64,000 nucleotides of DNA from Gemmatimonadales bacterium (GCA_035699205.1 DASSBA010000222.1:33988-97987), one strand, 5' to 3'. Positions 21,235 to 27,513 are shown, counted from the stretch's first letter. Program-made: numbers and translations. Notes: a model not told the origin generated them from the sequence alone.

Positions 21235-23277
21235 TCATGCGACCGCGTGCTCCTTTTCGTTCTCCGCCGCCACTCTGGCCGCCACTTCCGGCGGCGCCTC
21301 CGCGTACCCGTGGAACTTCTCCCGGTGGGTGCCCCGACCGTGGGTGATGGAGTGCAGCGTCGTCGAGTACCGGTAGAGCTCCGCCTCCGGCACGATGGCC
21401 CGCACCTTGGTGAGCCGGCCGTCCGGCTCGGTGCCGAGGATCTGCCCCCGCCGGGCGCTCAGGTCGCCCATCACGTCGCCGAGGAGCTCGTCGGGCGCCC
21501 AGACGGTCACTTCGATCAACGGCTCGAGCAGGACCGGGCGGGCCTTCGCGGCCACGTTCCGGAACGCCAGGATACCCGCCATCTTGAACGACATCTCGTT
21601 GGAATCCACGTCGTGGTAGGACCCGTCGAAGCACTCCACCTGGAAGTCCACCATGGGGTACCCCGCCACCACCCCCCGCTCCGCCGACTCCTGGACGCCC
21701 CGGTCCACCGCCGGAATGAACTTGTTGGGGATCACGCCGCCGACGATGCTGTCCACGAACTCGTAGCCCGCCCCGCGCGGACGGGGGGAGATCCGGATCC
21801 AGCAGTCGCCGTACTGCCCGCGGCCGCCGCTCTGTTTCTTGTGCTTGCCCTGGCCCTCGGCCTTCCCCCTGATCGTCTCGCGGTACGCCACGCGCGGACG
21901 CGCCAGCTCGGCGTGCACGCCGTACTTCCGCTCCAGCCGCTGCAGGATGGTCTCGAAGTGCCGCTCTCCCATGCCATGAATCAGCGTCTGGCCGAGCTCG
22001 GAACTGTACTCGAAATGAAAGGTGGGGTCCTCCTCGTGCAGCTTGTGGAGGCCCGCGGCCAGCTTGTCCTCCTCACCCCGCTGCTTCACCACGACGGCCG
22101 AGGTGGCCTCGGAGGCCGGCAGCGGGATCGGCGGGAGCCGGACCGGCGCGTCGCGCCGGCAGAAGGTGTCACCCGTATGGGTGTCCTTGAGCTTGGCGAC
22201 CGACCCGATGTCCCCTGCGCAGAGCTGCTCCACCTCGATTCGCTCCTTGCCCTGCTGGATCGAGAGGTGGTTCAGCTTCTCGGCCACGTCGTGCTCGGCG
22301 TTCCAGACCTCGTCCCCGTTCCGGAGCTCGCCCGTGTAGAGCCGGAACAGGCTCACATCGCCCACATGCGGCTCGGACATCGTCTTGAACACCCGACCGA
22401 CCAGCGGCGCGTCCACCGGCGGCGTGCGCTCGGCGGGTGACGGGAACAACTCCACCATCTTCCGGAGCAGTGTCCGGAGCCCATAGGTCAGCGTGGCGCT
22501 GCCGCAGAAGAGGGGGACGACCTGCCCCCCCAGCATCGCGTTCTTGACCGCACCGATGAACTGCTCGCGCGGGATCTCCTCCCCCGCGAGATAGCGCTCG
22601 ATCAGGTCGTCGTCGGTCGAGGCGACCGCCTCCGTGAGGTGCTCGCCGTATTCCCGGTAGCGCGCCTCATATTCCGCGGGGATCGGCACCACCTCGTTCT
22701 CGCCCTTGAGCGCGCCCTTCTGGTAGAGGTGGCAGTGACCGGAGAAGAGGTTGATGATCCCGTGGAAGTCGGGGCCGTCGCCGACCGGAATCTCCACCGG
22801 CACGACCCTGGACGTCAGATGCGCCCTCACGTGGGCGAAAACCCGCTCGAAGTCCGCGTGCTCCTTATCCATGAGCGAGACGAACAGGGCGCGGGGCAGA
22901 TGCAGCCGGTCGAGGACCTCCCAGGCCTTTTCGGTGCCCACCTCGACCCCGCTGGTGCCGCTCACCACGACCACGGCGGCGTCGGCGGCATGCAGGCCGG
23001 TGACGACTTCACCGAAGTAATCGAGGTAGCCCGGGGTGTCGATGAGGTTGAGCTTGGTGTCCATCCACTCGGCGAAGCCCAGGGCCAGATTGATGGAATG
23101 CTGTCGGGCGATTTCGTCGGGGGAGTAATCGGTGAGGGTGGTACCGTCCTTGATGCCGCCATGGCGGCGGCTGCTGCCGGATACCCAGGCGAGGGCGTCC
23201 ACGAGCGACGTCTTGCCGCTGCCTCCATGACCGACGAACGCCACGTTGCGGATGGCGCTGGAGCCATAGACCTTCAT
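21235..23277 (-). CDS. elongation factor G family GTPase (stand-alone paralogue)
   Basis: ATG 23277 about 9 nt after AAGGAGG. Contains G1 GHGGSGKT, G3 DTPG, and EF-G domains II-V. It is not in an rpsL-rpsG-fusA-tuf context. Confidence 0.9.
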   Translation of the reverse strand: MKVYGSSAIRNVAFVGHGGSGKTSLVDALAWVSGSSRRHGGIKDGTTLTDYSPDEIARQHSINLALGFAEWMDTKLNLIDTPGYLDYFGEVVTGLHAADAAVVVVSGTSGVEVGTEKAWEVLDRLHLPRALFVSLMDKEHADFERVFAHVRAHLTSRVVPVEIPVGDGPDFHGIINLFSGHCHLYQKGALKGENEVVPIPAEYEARYREYGEHLTEAVASTDDDLIERYLAGEEIPREQFIGAVKNAMLGGQVVPLFCGSATLTYGLRTLLRKMVELFPSPAERTPPVDAPLVGRVFKTMSEPHVGDVSLFRLYTGELRNGDEVWNAEHDVAEKLNHLSIQQGKERIEVEQLCAGDIGSVAKLKDTHTGDTFCRRDAPVRLPPIPLPASEATSAVVVKQRGEEDKLAAGLHKLHEEDPTFHFEYSSELGQTLIHGMGERHFETILQRLERKYGVHAELARPRVAYRETIRGKAEGQGKHKKQSGGRGQYGDCWIRISPRPRGAGYEFVDSIVGGVIPNKFIPAVDRGVQESAERGVVAGYPMVDFQVECFDGSYHDVDSNEMSFKMAGILAFRNVAAKARPVLLEPLIEVTVWAPDELLGDVMGDLSARRGQILGTEPDGRLTKVRAIVPEAELYRYSTTLHSITHGRGTHREKFHGYAEAPPEVAARVAAENEKEHAVA

Positions 23278-23415
23278 GGCCTCCACCTCCTTCGGAGAGT
23301 TGGATTTTCAAGGTGGAGAGGGGGGAAGAAGTTGTCAAATCAGGCTGGCGCGGCCGGCGCCCGGGCTGTAGCATAGTGCCGCATGCCGGTCCTCCCCCCA
23401 CACTCAGGAGCCCTC

Positions 23416-23898
23416 ATGTCACGCCCGTCGTGCTTCCGCCTGGCTGCTCCGCTGGTGTTGGCAGTGACCCTCGTCGGCACCGCGGCCGCTCAGGGAGTCG
23501 AGACCCCTCACATTCCCCTCCGCACGGTGATCGACCAGCTCAACTCCACGCGAGCCTCGTACGAAGAGGCGTTCAACGCCAAGAACGCGGCCGCGGTCGC
23601 CGCCATGTACCTGGACGAGGCCATCGTGATCCGGCCGGACGGCAGCCAGCTCGTGGGGGCCAAGGCCATCGGTGAGGCGTTGAAGGCGGATGCGCCCACC
23701 TGGCCGCACATGGTGCTCACGTCGGATACCGTCCGGGTGTACGGCGGTACCGCGCTGGACTTCGGCACCGTGACGACGCACCCGAAGGATGGAGGCGAAA
23801 ACGTGAGCCACTACCTGGCCGTCCTGCGGCGGGGCCTGCGGGGCTGGAAGATCGCGGCGGTCTCGCAGGTACCCGTCACGGAGAAGAAGGGGGACTGA
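23416..23898 (+). CDS. SnoaL-like / DUF4440 (NTF2-fold) secreted protein
   Basis: ATG 23416 after CAGGAG. Signal peptide, then an NTF2-like pattern (YEEAFNAKNAAAVAAMY...HYLAVLRR..GWKI). Confidence 0.6.
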   Translation: MSRPSCFRLAAPLVLAVTLVGTAAAQGVETPHIPLRTVIDQLNSTRASYEEAFNAKNAAAVAAMYLDEAIVIRPDGSQLVGAKAIGEALKADAPTWPHMVLTSDTVRVYGGTALDFGTVTTHPKDGGENVSHYLAVLRRGLRGWKIAAVSQVPVTEKKGD

Positions 23899-24050
23899 GC
23901 AGGCGAGCGCCGCGGCGCTTGCGGCGCTGCATGGCCATCGGGCTTCGAAGAAACGGCCCCAGCCGCTCCAGCCGGCCGAAGGGCGTGAGCCATGCGTCCG
24001 GCCGGCGGAGCGCGGACTTGATCCCTTCGGCCGGCATGGTGGGCCGGCCG
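23876..24050 (-). pseudogene. orphan copy of the C-terminal tail of the 24689-25558 gene
   Basis: The minus-strand frame reads PTMPAEGIKSALRRPDAWLTPFGRLERLGPFLRSPMAMQRRKRRG. The true tail reads LTAPAEGLKSALRSPDVRLTPFGELERLGPFIRNQIAMQRRKRQRRKG. No SD is present, and the frame is bounded upstream by a stop. Confidence 0.55.
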
Positions 24051-24068
24051 CGGGGCCGGACCGAGACG

Positions 24069-24587
24069 CTATCTCACCCGCCCGAGCTGCACCGACAGCG
24101 TGACTCCCGCGAATGACCGTGTCCGGTTGAAGTCGGCGAAGCCGTATAAGCCGAAGCCGAGAAACGTCGCGGGTAGCCAGGCGAGTTGCGCCTCCAGCGG
24201 GAGGCCGACGACCGTACGCTGATTCTGGCAACTGCTGAAGACCGAGCCTCCCACGCAACCGTCGACAGCCGCGAGGCCGATGGCGGCCCCGGCGCGGTAC
24301 CGGTCCCTCGCGGTCCGCGTTGCGCGTCCGTACAGAACGGCGATGTCGCTGAACCCGTCCTCGAACAACCCGGCGCTCGCGGCCGCGCGCAGGGAGAACA
24401 GGTGTACGCCGTGCTGGTATGAGACCCCGGCGGCCCCGGCGAAGTCCTCGGTTCCGGCCCCGAGCCCGGCGGCAACCCAGAAGACGTCCCGGGGCGCGGC
24501 GGGCGTGTACTGCGCCAGCGCACACGCGAGGTGCGTCGGGACGACGCCTGCCAGGATCAGGAGGGTGCGGACGATCTGTCTCGACAC
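24069..24587 (-). CDS. hypothetical secreted, small beta-barrel-like protein
   Basis: GTG 24587 lies 7 nt after GGAGGG. Signal peptide MSRQIVRTLLILAGVVPTHLACALAQ. Gly/Ala/aromatic alternating sequence. No family recognised. Confidence 0.45.
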   Translation of the reverse strand: MSRQIVRTLLILAGVVPTHLACALAQYTPAAPRDVFWVAAGLGAGTEDFAGAAGVSYQHGVHLFSLRAAASAGLFEDGFSDIAVLYGRATRTARDRYRAGAAIGLAAVDGCVGGSVFSSCQNQRTVVGLPLEAQLAWLPATFLGFGLYGFADFNRTRSFAGVTLSVQLGRVR

Positions 24588-24688
24588 GCTTGATCCCTCC
24601 GGAAGGCGGGGCGGCAGATCGAAGAGAGCGAGCTTGCGACAGAAGATCGAACTTGGAGGCCGCGGAATGAGCCGTCAAGTCGTCGCGT

Positions 24689-25558
24689 TCATCGACCGAC
24701 GCCCCCGCCCTTGCGACGCTGCCGCTTGCGACGCTGCATGGCGATCTGGTTCCGGATGAACGGTCCGAGCCGCTCCAGCTCGCCGAAAGGCGTGAGGCGC
24801 ACGTCAGGGCTACGCAGCGCGGACTTGAGCCCCTCGGCCGGCGCGGTGAGATCGCCGGGCGCCTCCAGACGGAACCCATAGCTTCCCGGCCGCGTCACTT
24901 CACGCGGGAACGGCAGCGGGTCCGTGCCGGGCAGCACCCGGATGCCGTGCCTTGCCGCGTCGGCGAAGTGCCGAGGCGCCGTCCAGAAGGAGGGCCGCCC
25001 CGCGGCATCCCCCAGGAAGAATCCGTCGCCCGGCCTAGCCGCCTCAACGAGCTCGCTCAGCAGCCGACCTCGGCCGAAGAGCCATTTGCCCGCGCCCCAG
25101 GGGATCACCCGCAGGGCCCCGAGCCGCTCACCTTCCGCCAGGACCTCGCGAATGGGGAGGCGGTCGGGAACGGTGGCTCGGGTGGCCAGGAGCAGGACCT
25201 CGAGTCCCTCCCGGGTCACCACCTGCCGGCCCGACACCAGCAGCAGCCGCTCCGCCCCTCGGTGCGCCAGCAGCGCGCTCGGGTCCGGAGTGGCGGCCAG
25301 CGCCCACGAACCCAGCGGCAGGTCGCTCGCGCCCGCGGCCACCGCGGCAAGACGGCCGAACCAGTCCACCCCCGCCGACTCCGAGAGCAGGAGCACGCCG
25401 GGCGCTTGCTCCCACCCGTGCTCCCGGGCCACTCGCTCGAAATTGCCCGCGGCATGTTCCAGGAACCGCTGCGGCGCGTAGCAATCGTGCAGGTGCACGT
25501 GGGCATCGATCAGCAGCGCCGGAGGCGGCTCGAGCTCCAGGGCCAGGGCAGGCTCCAT
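24689..25558 (-). CDS. putative metal-dependent hydrolase (PHP/amidohydrolase-like) with basic C-terminal tail
   Basis: The N-terminal LIDAHVHLHD metal-binding-type motif is the only motif evidence. The family is not firmly recognised. Confidence 0.55.
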   Translation of the reverse strand: MEPALALELEPPPALLIDAHVHLHDCYAPQRFLEHAAGNFERVAREHGWEQAPGVLLLSESAGVDWFGRLAAVAAGASDLPLGSWALAATPDPSALLAHRGAERLLLVSGRQVVTREGLEVLLLATRATVPDRLPIREVLAEGERLGALRVIPWGAGKWLFGRGRLLSELVEAARPGDGFFLGDAAGRPSFWTAPRHFADAARHGIRVLPGTDPLPFPREVTRPGSYGFRLEAPGDLTAPAEGLKSALRSPDVRLTPFGELERLGPFIRNQIAMQRRKRQRRKGGGVGR

Positions 25559-25617
25559 ATGTCGGAAGCGGATCGAATCGGGTCGAATCGGGAGGGTACG
25601 TTACCGCAGGCGCCGGC

Positions 25618-27513
25618 TCAGCGGTACCCCGCGGCCTGCAACTGGAACAGCTCGGCATAGAGGCCCCCCTGCAGCACCAGGGCCTCGTGGGTTCCCTGCT
25701 CCACCAGCTCGCCGCCCTGGAGCACCAGGATGCGGTCGGCCATGCGCACCGTGCTGAATCGATGCGAGATTAGCACCGCCATACGCCCGGCCGTCAGCTC
25801 CGAGAATCGAAGAAACACCTCATACTCCGCCCGTGCGTCGAGCGCCGCCGTCGGCTCGTCGAGGATGAGGAGCTGCGCGTCCCGCATGTACGCGCGGGCC
25901 AGCGCCACTTTCTGCCACTCCCCGCCGGACAGGTCGACCCCGTTCTCGAACCGGCGGCCGAGCATCTGGTCGTACCGCCCGGTCAGCCGGGCCGCGACCG
26001 TGTCGGCCAGGCTCCGCTGCGCGGCGGTCTCGATCCGCGCCGCGTCCTCCCGCGCGGCGATATTGCCCACCGCGATATTCTCCCGGAGCACGAAATCGTA
26101 GCGCACGAAGTCCTGGAAGATGACGCCGACGTTCCGCCGGACGCTGTCGACGTCGTACTCGCGGAGGTCCACCCCGTCGAGCAGAATGCGGCCTTCACTC
26201 GGGTCGTAGAGGCGGGCCAGCAGCTTCACCAGCGTGGTCTTTCCCGCACCGTTCTCCCCGACCAGCGCGATCCGCTCGCCCGGGGCGAGCGAGAAGTCGA
26301 GGCCCCGCACCGCCCAGCGCTCGGAACCGGGATATCGGAAGCCGACGTTCTCGAACACGAAGCCGGTGTGGATCGGCACCGGCACTTGGCGGGCGCCGGG
26401 ATTCCGCCGGATCCTGGGCTCGACCGCGAGGAAGCTGAACAGGTCGTCGAGGTAGAGGCTCTGCTCGAACACCTGCGAGAGCGACAGCAGCACCCGCTGG
26501 ATGAGGTCGCGGCTCTGGCGGAACGAGCCCGCAAGGAAAGTCAGCACGCCGATGGTGAACAGACCGGCCGGTGAGCGGTAGCCCGTCACCGTCAGGTAGA
26601 TGATCACGGCGTACGCCCCGTAATACCCCAGGGTGCCGACGGCCGCGAGCAGCGTGGAGACGAAGCTCCGCCGGATGGCCAGGCGCTTGTTGGCTTCGTA
26701 GAAGTCGTTGCTCAGCCGGTCGTAGCGGTCGACCAGGAAGTCGGACAGCCCGAAGAGCTTGAGCTCTTTGGCGGAGACATCGCTCGCGCCGATGTAGCGC
26801 AGGTAGTCGAGCTGGCGGCGCTCGGGCGTCCAGGAGTAGAGCAGCGAGTAGCCCAGCGAGGCGAAGTGGGTCTCGCCTAGGAGCGAGGGCAGCACCGCCA
26901 TCAGGAGCAGCACCAGGAGCCACGGCACGTACACCGCGAGCGCCGCCGCCAGGGTCGCGAGAGTGATCGCGTCCTGCACCGACGAGAGCAGCATGGTGAA
27001 GAGCCCGATCCGGCCCACGGTCTGCCGCCGCGCGCGCTCCAGCTTGTCGTAGAGCTCCGCGTCCTCGAACTGTTCCAGGTCGAGCGTGGCCGCATGCCGC
27101 ATCAGCTCGACGCTCGTCTCGTTGGCGAAGAGATCACCGAGCAGGCTCTCGAGCAGGGCCGACAGCCGGGCCAGCCCCTCGCCGGAGAGCGCGATCGTCA
27201 GTTCGATGGCCACGAGCTCGCCCAACCGGGCCCAGTCGACGCCCGCGCCGCTCCCCGCCACACCCATCGCCACGACCACCTCGTCGACGATGAGCTTTCC
27301 GATCCACAGCACCGCCAGGGGCACCAGCGACCGCACGACGCGCAGCACCAGGATGCCCACCACGTAGCGCGGCTCGGTCTGCCAGACCAGCCCGAGCAGG
27401 CGGGGCACGTGCCGCAGCGCCTCCAGCCGCTCGCGCCAGCCCGGCGGCGGCTCGACGGGCTTACGAGACCCCCGGTTGGGCCGTACAATCGGGTGCTGCA
27501 GCGGAAGCGTCAT
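25618..27513 (-). CDS. ABC transporter ATP-binding/permease fusion (MsbA-like exporter)
   Basis: 631 aa. Six-TM N-terminal domain, Walker A GENGAGKTT, signature LSGGEWQ, Walker B LLILDEPT. Confidence 0.9.
   Translation of the reverse strand: MTLPLQHPIVRPNRGSRKPVEPPPGWRERLEALRHVPRLLGLVWQTEPRYVVGILVLRVVRSLVPLAVLWIGKLIVDEVVVAMGVAGSGAGVDWARLGELVAIELTIALSGEGLARLSALLESLLGDLFANETSVELMRHAATLDLEQFEDAELYDKLERARRQTVGRIGLFTMLLSSVQDAITLATLAAALAVYVPWLLVLLLMAVLPSLLGETHFASLGYSLLYSWTPERRQLDYLRYIGASDVSAKELKLFGLSDFLVDRYDRLSNDFYEANKRLAIRRSFVSTLLAAVGTLGYYGAYAVIIYLTVTGYRSPAGLFTIGVLTFLAGSFRQSRDLIQRVLLSLSQVFEQSLYLDDLFSFLAVEPRIRRNPGARQVPVPIHTGFVFENVGFRYPGSERWAVRGLDFSLAPGERIALVGENGAGKTTLVKLLARLYDPSEGRILLDGVDLREYDVDSVRRNVGVIFQDFVRYDFVLRENIAVGNIAAREDAARIETAAQRSLADTVAARLTGRYDQMLGRRFENGVDLSGGEWQKVALARAYMRDAQLLILDEPTAALDARAEYEVFLRFSELTAGRMAVLISHRFSTVRMADRILVLQGGELVEQGTHEALVLQGGLYAELFQLQAAGYR

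Follow-up and report, generated by a model that had tools for sequence, protein, structure and literature searches.

A probable relic of a hydrolase 3′ end, partly overwritten by recombination, next to an outer-membrane barrel gene of Gemmatimonadales

Why should the tail of a gene be present a second time without the rest of that gene? A 64,000-nucleotide (nt) stretch of DNA from a Gemmatimonadales bacterium (GCA_035699205.1 DASSBA010000222.1:33988-97987; hereafter the window) raises this question, since the 3′ end of a hydrolase-like gene is found there twice, once in the gene itself and once as an orphan fragment, with a small gene for a putative outer-membrane (OM) protein lying between the two copies. 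Comparison with related loci makes it probable that the orphan is a non-functional relic of the hydrolase 3′ end, which goes back to one old rearrangement at the level of DNA and was later partly overwritten by recombination. The original prediction had described an ungapped repeat, the right copy of which is the genuine end of the hydrolase gene and the left copy of which lies in an open frame of about 53 codons without a Shine-Dalgarno sequence. The two copies were said to bracket a gene for a signal-peptide protein of 172 amino acids (aa), which has a good Shine-Dalgarno sequence. These observations could all be reproduced: the right copy ends an intact open reading frame (ORF) of 289 aa, the orphan ORF has no Shine-Dalgarno sequence, and GGAGGG stands upstream of the 172-aa ORF (coordinates and strands are given in Table 1).

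A recount of positions 23918-24041 against 24725-24848 gave 98 identical bases among 124, without any gap, as predicted, and a repeat search extended the pair to 23916-24050 and 24723-24857 with an identity of 78%. The window has a G+C content of 70.2%, and a similarity no better than expected for such DNA had been named as a possible objection. When either copy was slid over both strands of the whole window, however, the background amounted to 36 identities on average (standard deviation 5.4) and the best unrelated match to 61. A third copy was not found within the window, neither by the sliding comparison nor by tblastn with the tail peptides, which led to only two places. The left and the right copy are collinear and share 76% of their amino acids (tblastn). 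Their differences are distributed over first, second and third codon positions as 6, 5 and 15, the synonymous divergence (dS) of the two tails is 0.63, and the ratio of non-synonymous to synonymous divergence (dN/dS) is 0.25. Between the copies lie 683 nt of unique sequence, consisting of a spacer and the OM gene, of which no second copy exists. Of the three histories that had been offered, a simple tandem duplication is thereby ruled out, as the unit between the copies is unique, whereas an insertion with duplication and the remnant of a displaced copy both survive.

The arrangement of the locus in relatives shows where the orphan belongs. All gene orders are given here with the hydrolase placed on the plus strand. 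In the nearest relatives (L001, L002, L003-L005, L016, L139 and L140) the order is ABC transporter, hydrolase, convergent SnoaL gene and EF-G-like GTPase gene (state A); the OM gene, whose presence or absence had been proposed as a check, is missing from the bracketed position. The single hydrolase tail of L001 and L002 overlaps the 3′ end of the SnoaL gene by 23 nt, just as the orphan ORF does in the window (the overlap was measured in these two loci; for L003-L005 and L016 the gene order was seen). The orphan thus occupies the ancestral position of the hydrolase tail. No relative has the fragment as the end of a separate intact gene, an alternative that had also been raised; the gene that ends with it is the single hydrolase gene. 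The ends of the state-A genes themselves differ. In L139 and L140 the gene ends at '...AGR*', and a spacer of 43-97 nt separates it from SnoaL (L139 4843-4940; L140 1435-1478). L001 and L002, and to judge from their protein ends also L003-L005, appear to have lost this stop region and to continue for about 11 extra codons into the SnoaL 3′ end (L001 1135-1157), which accounts for the 23-nt overlap.

The arrangement of the window (state B) is shared by L083, L132-L138 and L143-L148 and is present in a degraded form in L084 and L085; the hydrolase variant of L132-L138 was seen, as protein, on 25 contigs. State B has two junctions, one between the hydrolase stop codon and 'ACGCGACGACTTGACGG' and the other between 'GGCCCCGCGGCCGGC' and 'CACCATGCC'. 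The latter, the junction of insert and orphan, lies within about 24042-24052 and reads '...TAG CGTCTCGG.CCGGCCCCGCGGCCGGC.CACCATGCC...'. It is identical wherever it has been kept, that is in the window, L084/85, L132-L138 and L143-L148, on more than 30 independent contigs, and only in L083 has it been removed by a deletion. State B hence has a single origin. Among the 82 genome loci with a hydrolase homologue, not one has an OM homologue next to it. Yet another kind of locus (type 2; L087, L089, L093, L094, L098 and L099) contains the OM gene directly between the same ABC transporter and EF-G genes, sometimes together with a response regulator; neither the hydrolase nor SnoaL nor remnants of the tail were found there by tblastn and blastn. 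The interval from the ABC transporter to EF-G is hence a small variable slot in Gemmatimonadales, which holds, depending on the lineage, hydrolase and SnoaL, the OM gene alone, the OM gene accompanied on one side or the other by a response regulator, or hydrolase, OM gene and SnoaL, so that the window has both kinds of content. Across lineages the OM protein retains an amino-acid identity of 65-71%, where the ABC transporter has 87-91%. State-B lineages differ from each other by a dS of 0.2-0.36 in the flanking genes (window versus L084), whereas L001, a state-A locus, is closer to the window in its flanks (dS 0.04-0.17). As haplotype and flank similarity disagree, recombination or a long-lived polymorphism is indicated.

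In sister lineages of the window the orphan decays. Only 31 nt of it are left in L083, between two deletions, one of which is bounded by short direct repeats. In L132-L138 and L084/85 it reads ...TPFSQLVRRGPFLRSQ..., versus ...TPFGRLERLGPF... in the family; the corresponding peptide in L132 and L084, FSQLVRRG, has lost the nearly invariant G259 and the invariant E262 (E262V) of the family sequence FGRLERLG. In addition, the codons for RRKRGG are taken out of the orphan of L132 and L084 by a deletion of 19 nt, which is not a multiple of three. The window has itself fixed Q271P at an invariant residue since the import described below, and R/W and K/E polymorphisms exist among the six independently assembled copies of its orphan. 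Q271P and these polymorphisms fit a relaxed constraint, with too few sites for a test. Decay is not restricted to the orphan: in L084/85 the hydrolase is a pseudogene with a deletion that begins right behind the ABC stop codon and reaches about codon 126, and with further internal deletions, only the last codons of its tail ('RRKRGGPSR*') remain, and SnoaL has shrunk to a fragment of about 50 codons. This state looks like a transition toward the arrangement ABC transporter, OM gene, EF-G.

The old orphan of L132 also reveals what was originally doubled. It keeps the counterparts of the hydrolase stop codon and of the bases that follow it, reading GGTCGGTGAATCGCGAC where GGTCGATGAACGCGAC stands after the functional copy, and the same native gene end is found in the state-A alleles L139 and L140. 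The ancestral unit was therefore about 180 nt of DNA and not a protein module, and the duplication happened at the DNA level. The original prediction had spoken of a tail module, and this reading is not upheld, as the unit extends past the stop codon and takes in part of the 3′ flank. The stretch of the window that includes the hydrolase stop codon (24676-24722) was once part of this unit and is no longer repeated there.

That the orphan of the window looks better preserved than that of L132 is due to a mosaic structure. Positions at which L132 and L001 differ were taken as discriminating sites. From 24041 to 24016 all four such sites of the window are in the L132 state; between 24002 and 23517, 70 of 75 are in the L001 state, and from 23490 onward the L132 state mostly returns. 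In terms of identity, it matches L132 at 95-97% from the ABC transporter through the OM gene (hydrolase body 92%, short ABC-hydrolase spacer 88%) and at 100% over the 32 nt from 24010 to 24041, but only at 79% over the remaining 23918-24009 and at 88-89% in SnoaL, after which the values rise to 99% in the next spacer and 96% in EF-G. With L001 it shares 97.5-97.7% across SnoaL and 93.5% over the orphan tail, and the dS between these two is 0.038 in SnoaL, 0.53 in the hydrolase and 0.17 at the end of the ABC transporter. A tract of about 500 nt is thus of L001-like, state-A origin; it takes in about 400 nt of SnoaL and, of the orphan, the 3′ three-quarters, and it is shared by L083. Derivation from a functional state-A allele explains both the open frame and the conservative-looking changes of the orphan, and the bias toward third codon positions results from the divergence between functional alleles (dN/dS 0.25 for the tails and 0.20, at a dS of 0.53, for the whole gene of window and L001). 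The open frame with mostly conservative changes, which had been noted before, is hence real, but it cannot be taken as a sign of selection on the orphan, since the two copies diverge just as functional alleles do. At 70% G+C an open frame of 53 codons is uninformative in any case, as is evident from a spurious ORF of 486 aa in another frame (23419-24879, minus strand) that spans SnoaL in antisense, the orphan, the OM gene and the hydrolase tail. A second tract was observed within the hydrolase gene, where L132 and L001 are 95% identical over a patch of 160 nt (25206-25365), while the window has only 81-86% identity to either. The exchange between haplotypes is therefore ongoing, and the hydrolase gene is itself mosaic.

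Taken together, one old event would have placed the OM gene, with its own upstream spacer and a 3′ flank of 27 nt, between hydrolase and SnoaL. The insert would thereby have come to be flanked on each side by about 180 nt, made up of the last approximately 46 codons of the hydrolase, its stop codon and a short piece of 3′ flank. Of these two copies, the upstream one would have stayed joined to the hydrolase and remained functional; the downstream copy would have lost everything upstream of it, including any ribosome-binding site, and would have been decaying since. Later, in the sub-lineage of the window, homologous recombination with an L001-like strain lacking the OM gene replaced about 500 nt, the crossovers having fallen once within the orphan and once within SnoaL. 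As for the founding event, a displacement is favoured, tentatively and at slightly less than an even chance. Here, incoming related DNA would have been anchored by homology on one side, either the ABC/hydrolase or the SnoaL/EF-G side, and joined illegitimately on the other (homology-facilitated illegitimate recombination). This route is preferred because the OM gene is an old resident of the slot elsewhere, with a divergence commensurate with that of the flanks, because an exchange of homologous haplotypes is directly visible at this locus, and because the insert is free of mobile-element features. Possible donor relatives exist in the form of other Gemmatimonadales with OM homologues in the same ABC to EF-G slot.

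Several points weigh against this account. A hydrolase adjacent to the OM gene without an orphan was not seen among 82 genome and 40 metagenome loci, so that the donor arrangement was not found there. Identities among the right tail, the old orphan and the tail of L001 all come to 81-85%, so that the three are roughly equally distant, and the parsimony-informative sites divide 1 versus 1 versus 0 over the three possible groupings; the tail tree is hence silent on whether the copies were initially identical. Most relatives are short metagenome contigs, and the strain phylogeny is derived from a few hundred bases of flanking genes. There is, moreover, a terminator-like hairpin followed by CCGTTTCTTC inside the orphan (23957-23981, minus strand), about 90 nt past the OM stop codon and deleted in L083; one such hit is, however, what shuffled sequence yields by chance. 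The orphan may still be translated or have a regulatory role.

Table 1. Features of the locus, in window coordinates unless a relative is named.
Feature	Position	Strand	Remarks
EF-G-like GTPase gene	21235..23286	-	conserved right border of the variable slot
SnoaL gene	23383..23898	+	convergent SnoaL/DUF4440 gene with signal peptide; Pfam PF14534, PF12680
Recombination tract	23500..24009	.	L001-like state-A origin; breakpoints 24016-24002 and 23517-23490
Left (orphan) copy	23916..24050	-	probable relic of the hydrolase 3′ end; 53-codon ORF 23876-24037, overlapping the SnoaL 3′ end by 23 nt
Old-orphan part of left copy	24010..24050	-	24010-24041 100% identical to L132
OM gene 3′ flank	24042..24068	-	6-bp G+C hairpin at 24044-24059
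OM gene	24069..24587	-	172 aa, VFG66_14820; signal peptide, predicted OmpA/OmpX/Ail-like barrel
Hydrolase-OM intergenic region	24588..24688	-	GGAGGG ribosome-binding site before GTG start; state-B specific; 97% identical in L132
Hydrolase gene end	24676..24722	-	polybasic tail, GGGVGR, stop codon 24689-24691, about 13 nt of 3′ flank
Hydrolase gene	24689..25558	-	intact 289-aa ORF; conserved unnamed family; DAHVHLHDC motif near N-terminus
Tandem duplication	24710..24737	-	15 nt; CTTGCGACGCTGC at 24710-24722 and 24725-24737; encodes QRRKRQRRK
Right (functional) repeat copy	24723..24857	-	hydrolase codons ~236-280
ABC transporter gene	25618..27513	-	fused permease-ATPase; Pfam PF00005; conserved left border of the variable slot
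Hydrolase remnant of L084/85	L084 669-945; L085 573-849		equivalent to window 24680-25617

Among the other routes to the same arrangement, the most serious is an event in situ, in which an OM cassette of about 630 nt would have been inserted about 25 nt past the hydrolase stop codon of a state-A chromosome and would have duplicated about 180 nt upstream of it, for example by staggered breaks with fill-in or by template switching, so that the copies were identical at first and the orphan drifted afterwards. This is unlikely, yet by no means negligible. Both copies have the same native stop region and flank motif, which are also present in the state-A loci L139 and L140, the divergence of the copies (19-23%) is compatible with one having been under constraint and the other neutral since slightly before the radiation of state B, and the absence of a donor arrangement among the loci surveyed speaks for it as well. 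A target duplication of 180 nt, however, far exceeds any duplication of the transposase type, and the insert encodes the OM barrel only, with no transposase, integrase or terminal inverted repeats in the ORF list and the repeat search, for which reasons a target-site duplication by an insertion sequence (IS) or transposon (the duplication being 135-180 nt) was rejected outright. The OM gene is furthermore a long-standing occupant of the slot, with a divergence comparable to that of the flanks, which suggests an exchange between variants of the locus and not a foreign insertion. The integration of a circular fragment by a single crossover appears improbable. Slightly more doubtful still is that the orphan is what remains of a full-length tandem paralogue of the hydrolase, situated between the OM gene and SnoaL, the 5′ five-sixths of which were deleted. 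The clean 3′ fragment with a 5′ boundary common to all state-B loci would agree with such a history, and deletions are frequent here (L083; hydrolase and SnoaL of L084/85). But two hydrolases, or an OM gene between two full copies, are found in none of the 82 genome and about 60 metagenome loci, and in state A a single hydrolase lies exactly at the position of the orphan with the same 23-nt overlap. This history differs from the favoured displacement only in whether the truncation took place during or after the rearrangement.

That the orphan is a functional basic peptide of 53 aa, corresponding to the C-terminal helix-strand-helix of the hydrolase and kept by selection, is very improbable. 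Its frame is open in the window, in loci of the L132 type and in L143-147, and the differences between the copies are enriched at third positions; this bias, however, is inherited from functional alleles (dN/dS 0.20 versus 0.25), most of the orphan of the window being a recent import from a functional gene. Invariant residues have been lost in the window (Q271P) as well as in L132 and L084 (E262V), and the fragment is partly deleted in L083 and L084/85. It has no ribosome-binding site, its ATG corresponds to an internal Met codon that relatives have in the homologous allele ('LTMPAEG'), no pipeline in the protein collection annotates it as a gene, and the tail packs as an integral part of the enzyme in the structural model. 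It has no Pfam or NCBIfam match; a query with the 53-aa protein gave no candidates, which reflects a word-index limit, since P0002 clearly matches the orphan. The least probable explanation of all, to the point of being negligible, is an artefact, either chance similarity of G+C-rich DNA or a chimeric assembly of two strains. The window does come from a metagenome-assembled genome (MAG), and both haplotypes are present in public metagenomes. Yet the agreement of the copies lies far above the background given above, the architecture was assembled independently and by different pipelines on more than 30 contigs (JGI, ENA, Logan), and the exact chimeric orphan of the window recurs in six other samples (L143-L148), so that it is not an assembly artefact. 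Three further candidates were discarded. The greater similarity to L001 of the orphan (93%) than of the hydrolase (85%) had suggested that the right tail and the hydrolase body were a divergent allele imported into an L001-like genome; this was dropped when the old orphan of L132 and L084 showed the likeness to L001 to be secondary, stemming from the later tract. L001 is not an excision product of the two repeats either, its tail being 84.7% identical to both copies. A polymorphic toxin/immunity array is ruled out by the conserved tail, by a predicted PHP fold without toxin or secretion domains and by the small gene coding for a predicted OM barrel.

A further idea, which is speculative and of low probability, is that the orphan acts as a landing pad of 124-180 nt of homology by which haplotypes with and without the OM gene exchange the SnoaL side, and that the repeat pair could excise the OM gene. 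A crossover inside the orphan was shown once, in the import of the window. If this were true, the OM barrel would be a cassette of gain and loss and part of a long-lived polymorphism in Gemmatimonadales populations.

The hydrolase itself (HET6579592.1, VFG66_14825, from a Gemmatimonadales MAG) has 434 homologues, mostly from Gemmatimonadales; the family also reaches Cyanobacteria (including Moorena), Nitrospirota, Myxococcota, Desulfobacterota, Ignavibacteria and Gammaproteobacteria (loci L017-L082). It has no Pfam or NCBIfam match, and a sequence search of the PDB with family profiles gave nothing useful. An AlphaFold2 model with a pLDDT of 91 was matched by Foldseek to PsfC (7rty), TM0559 (2anu), RNase AM and EndoQ; the matches to PHP proteins (7rty, 2anu, 7ug9, 5zb8) have E-values of 2.5e-6 to 1e-3, with TM-scores of only 0.36-0.6. 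The PHP superfamily is marked by the PHP fold together with an N-terminal HxH metal-binding motif, and D18, H20, H22, H24 and C26 as well as a PWG.GKW motif are invariant in the hydrolase family. A PHP-type metal-dependent phosphoesterase fold is predicted for the protein. Its tail is modelled with good confidence as a helix (240-249), a strand (254-258) and a second helix (264-283) and contains the family-invariant residues E262, F267, Q271, M274 and Q275; in L083 and L132, two state-B relatives, the segment that corresponds to the right copy shares 94-95% of its bases with it. The internal duplication that had been pointed out in the right copy is indeed present as a 13-nt sequence occurring twice in a 15-nt tandem duplication (Table 1). 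It is missing from L132-type alleles, P0220-P0222 (P0220 '...MQRRKRGGVGR'), and present or varied in P0223-P0227, which makes it a young polymorphism among close strains; in L083 the polybasic C-terminus is varied as well (QRRKGRRRRRGGVGR). The polybasic end is the part of the hydrolase family with the most length variation.

For the 172-aa OM protein 99 homologues were found, so far only in Gemmatimonadales-like contigs, and there is no Pfam or NCBIfam match. Its AlphaFold2 model (pLDDT 72) consists of a signal helix and eight strands, and Foldseek matched it to OmpA, Ail, OprF, NspA and OmpX (E-values 1.6e-5 to 8e-4), according to which the protein is predicted to be a small secreted 8-stranded beta-barrel with a signal peptide. 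Two Cys residues (C111, C120) are nearly invariant in the family, and a GLYGF motif is invariant. One of the homologues, L086, is found at another site of its genome, adjoining a transposase of the IS110 family. The region between hydrolase and OM gene did not resemble the ABC-OM spacers of type-2 loci, nor did the OM 3′ flanks of these loci resemble that of the window, both comparisons having been made by eye only, the former without alignment or BLAST. The ABC transporter has 87-96% amino-acid identity across all locus types, and upstream of the slot the DUF421, SDR and GAF-histidine-kinase genes are conserved. Rfam gave no match over 23000-26000, and a promoter scan found none.

For annotation, it follows from this locus that the 53-codon ORF should not be called a gene, and that an open, conservatively diverged frame may be a freshly overwritten relic. 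The locus also offers an example of fine-scale mosaicism in uncultured soil Gemmatimonadales, with tracts of 160-500 nt being visible, and of a history, consisting of a founding rearrangement, decay and partial overwriting, that can be ordered from metagenome contigs alone. Two unnamed families, that of the putative PHP-fold enzyme and that of the OM barrel, could receive family models. The knowledge of recombination mechanisms is not changed by it.

The locus can be compared with several known systems. Insertions of transposons and IS elements produce target-site duplications of 2-14 nt; direct repeats likewise stand on either side of the inserted gene here, but they measure about 135-180 nt. 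Integration of the Campbell type, by a single crossover, leaves a copy of the homologous region at either end of the inserted DNA, and the direct repeats of about 180 nt around a unique insert resemble this outcome. It would, however, have required a circular intermediate bearing both the tail and the OM cassette, of which no example is known, and plasmid or phage genes are absent from the vicinity. Variable islets of the replacement type, situated between core genes, are swapped by homologous recombination in their flanks. The ABC to EF-G slot is similar to these in its alternative contents, its short tracts and the discord between haplotype and flanks. It differs in being very small (0.1-1.7 kb variable) and in containing ordinary, housekeeping-like genes, and no evidence of phage- or glycan-related selection was seen at the slot.

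The closest parallel is provided by the rhs, contact-dependent inhibition (CDI) and type VI secretion system (T6SS) effector loci, in which orphan 3′ fragments result from a displacement of the 3′ end, attributed to homology-facilitated illegitimate recombination (Kirchberger et al., 2017, PMC5361080, citing Jackson et al., 2009; de Vries and Wackernagel, 2002; Meier and Wackernagel, 2003). As in those loci, a full gene is followed by a small gene and then by an orphan 3′ end without start signals, conserved flanks are able to anchor recombination, and relics are kept downstream. In contrast to them, both ends are homologous and conserved here and are not polymorphic toxin tips, the main gene codes for a predicted PHP-fold enzyme without secretion or toxin features, and a putative secreted OM barrel, instead of a cytoplasmic immunity protein, lies in between. 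There is also one relic and no array, and for the present locus the mechanism is inferred. The locus is thus a new instance of a well-known genomic scar, and one in which the scar has also served as a crossover site and was thereby partly refreshed.

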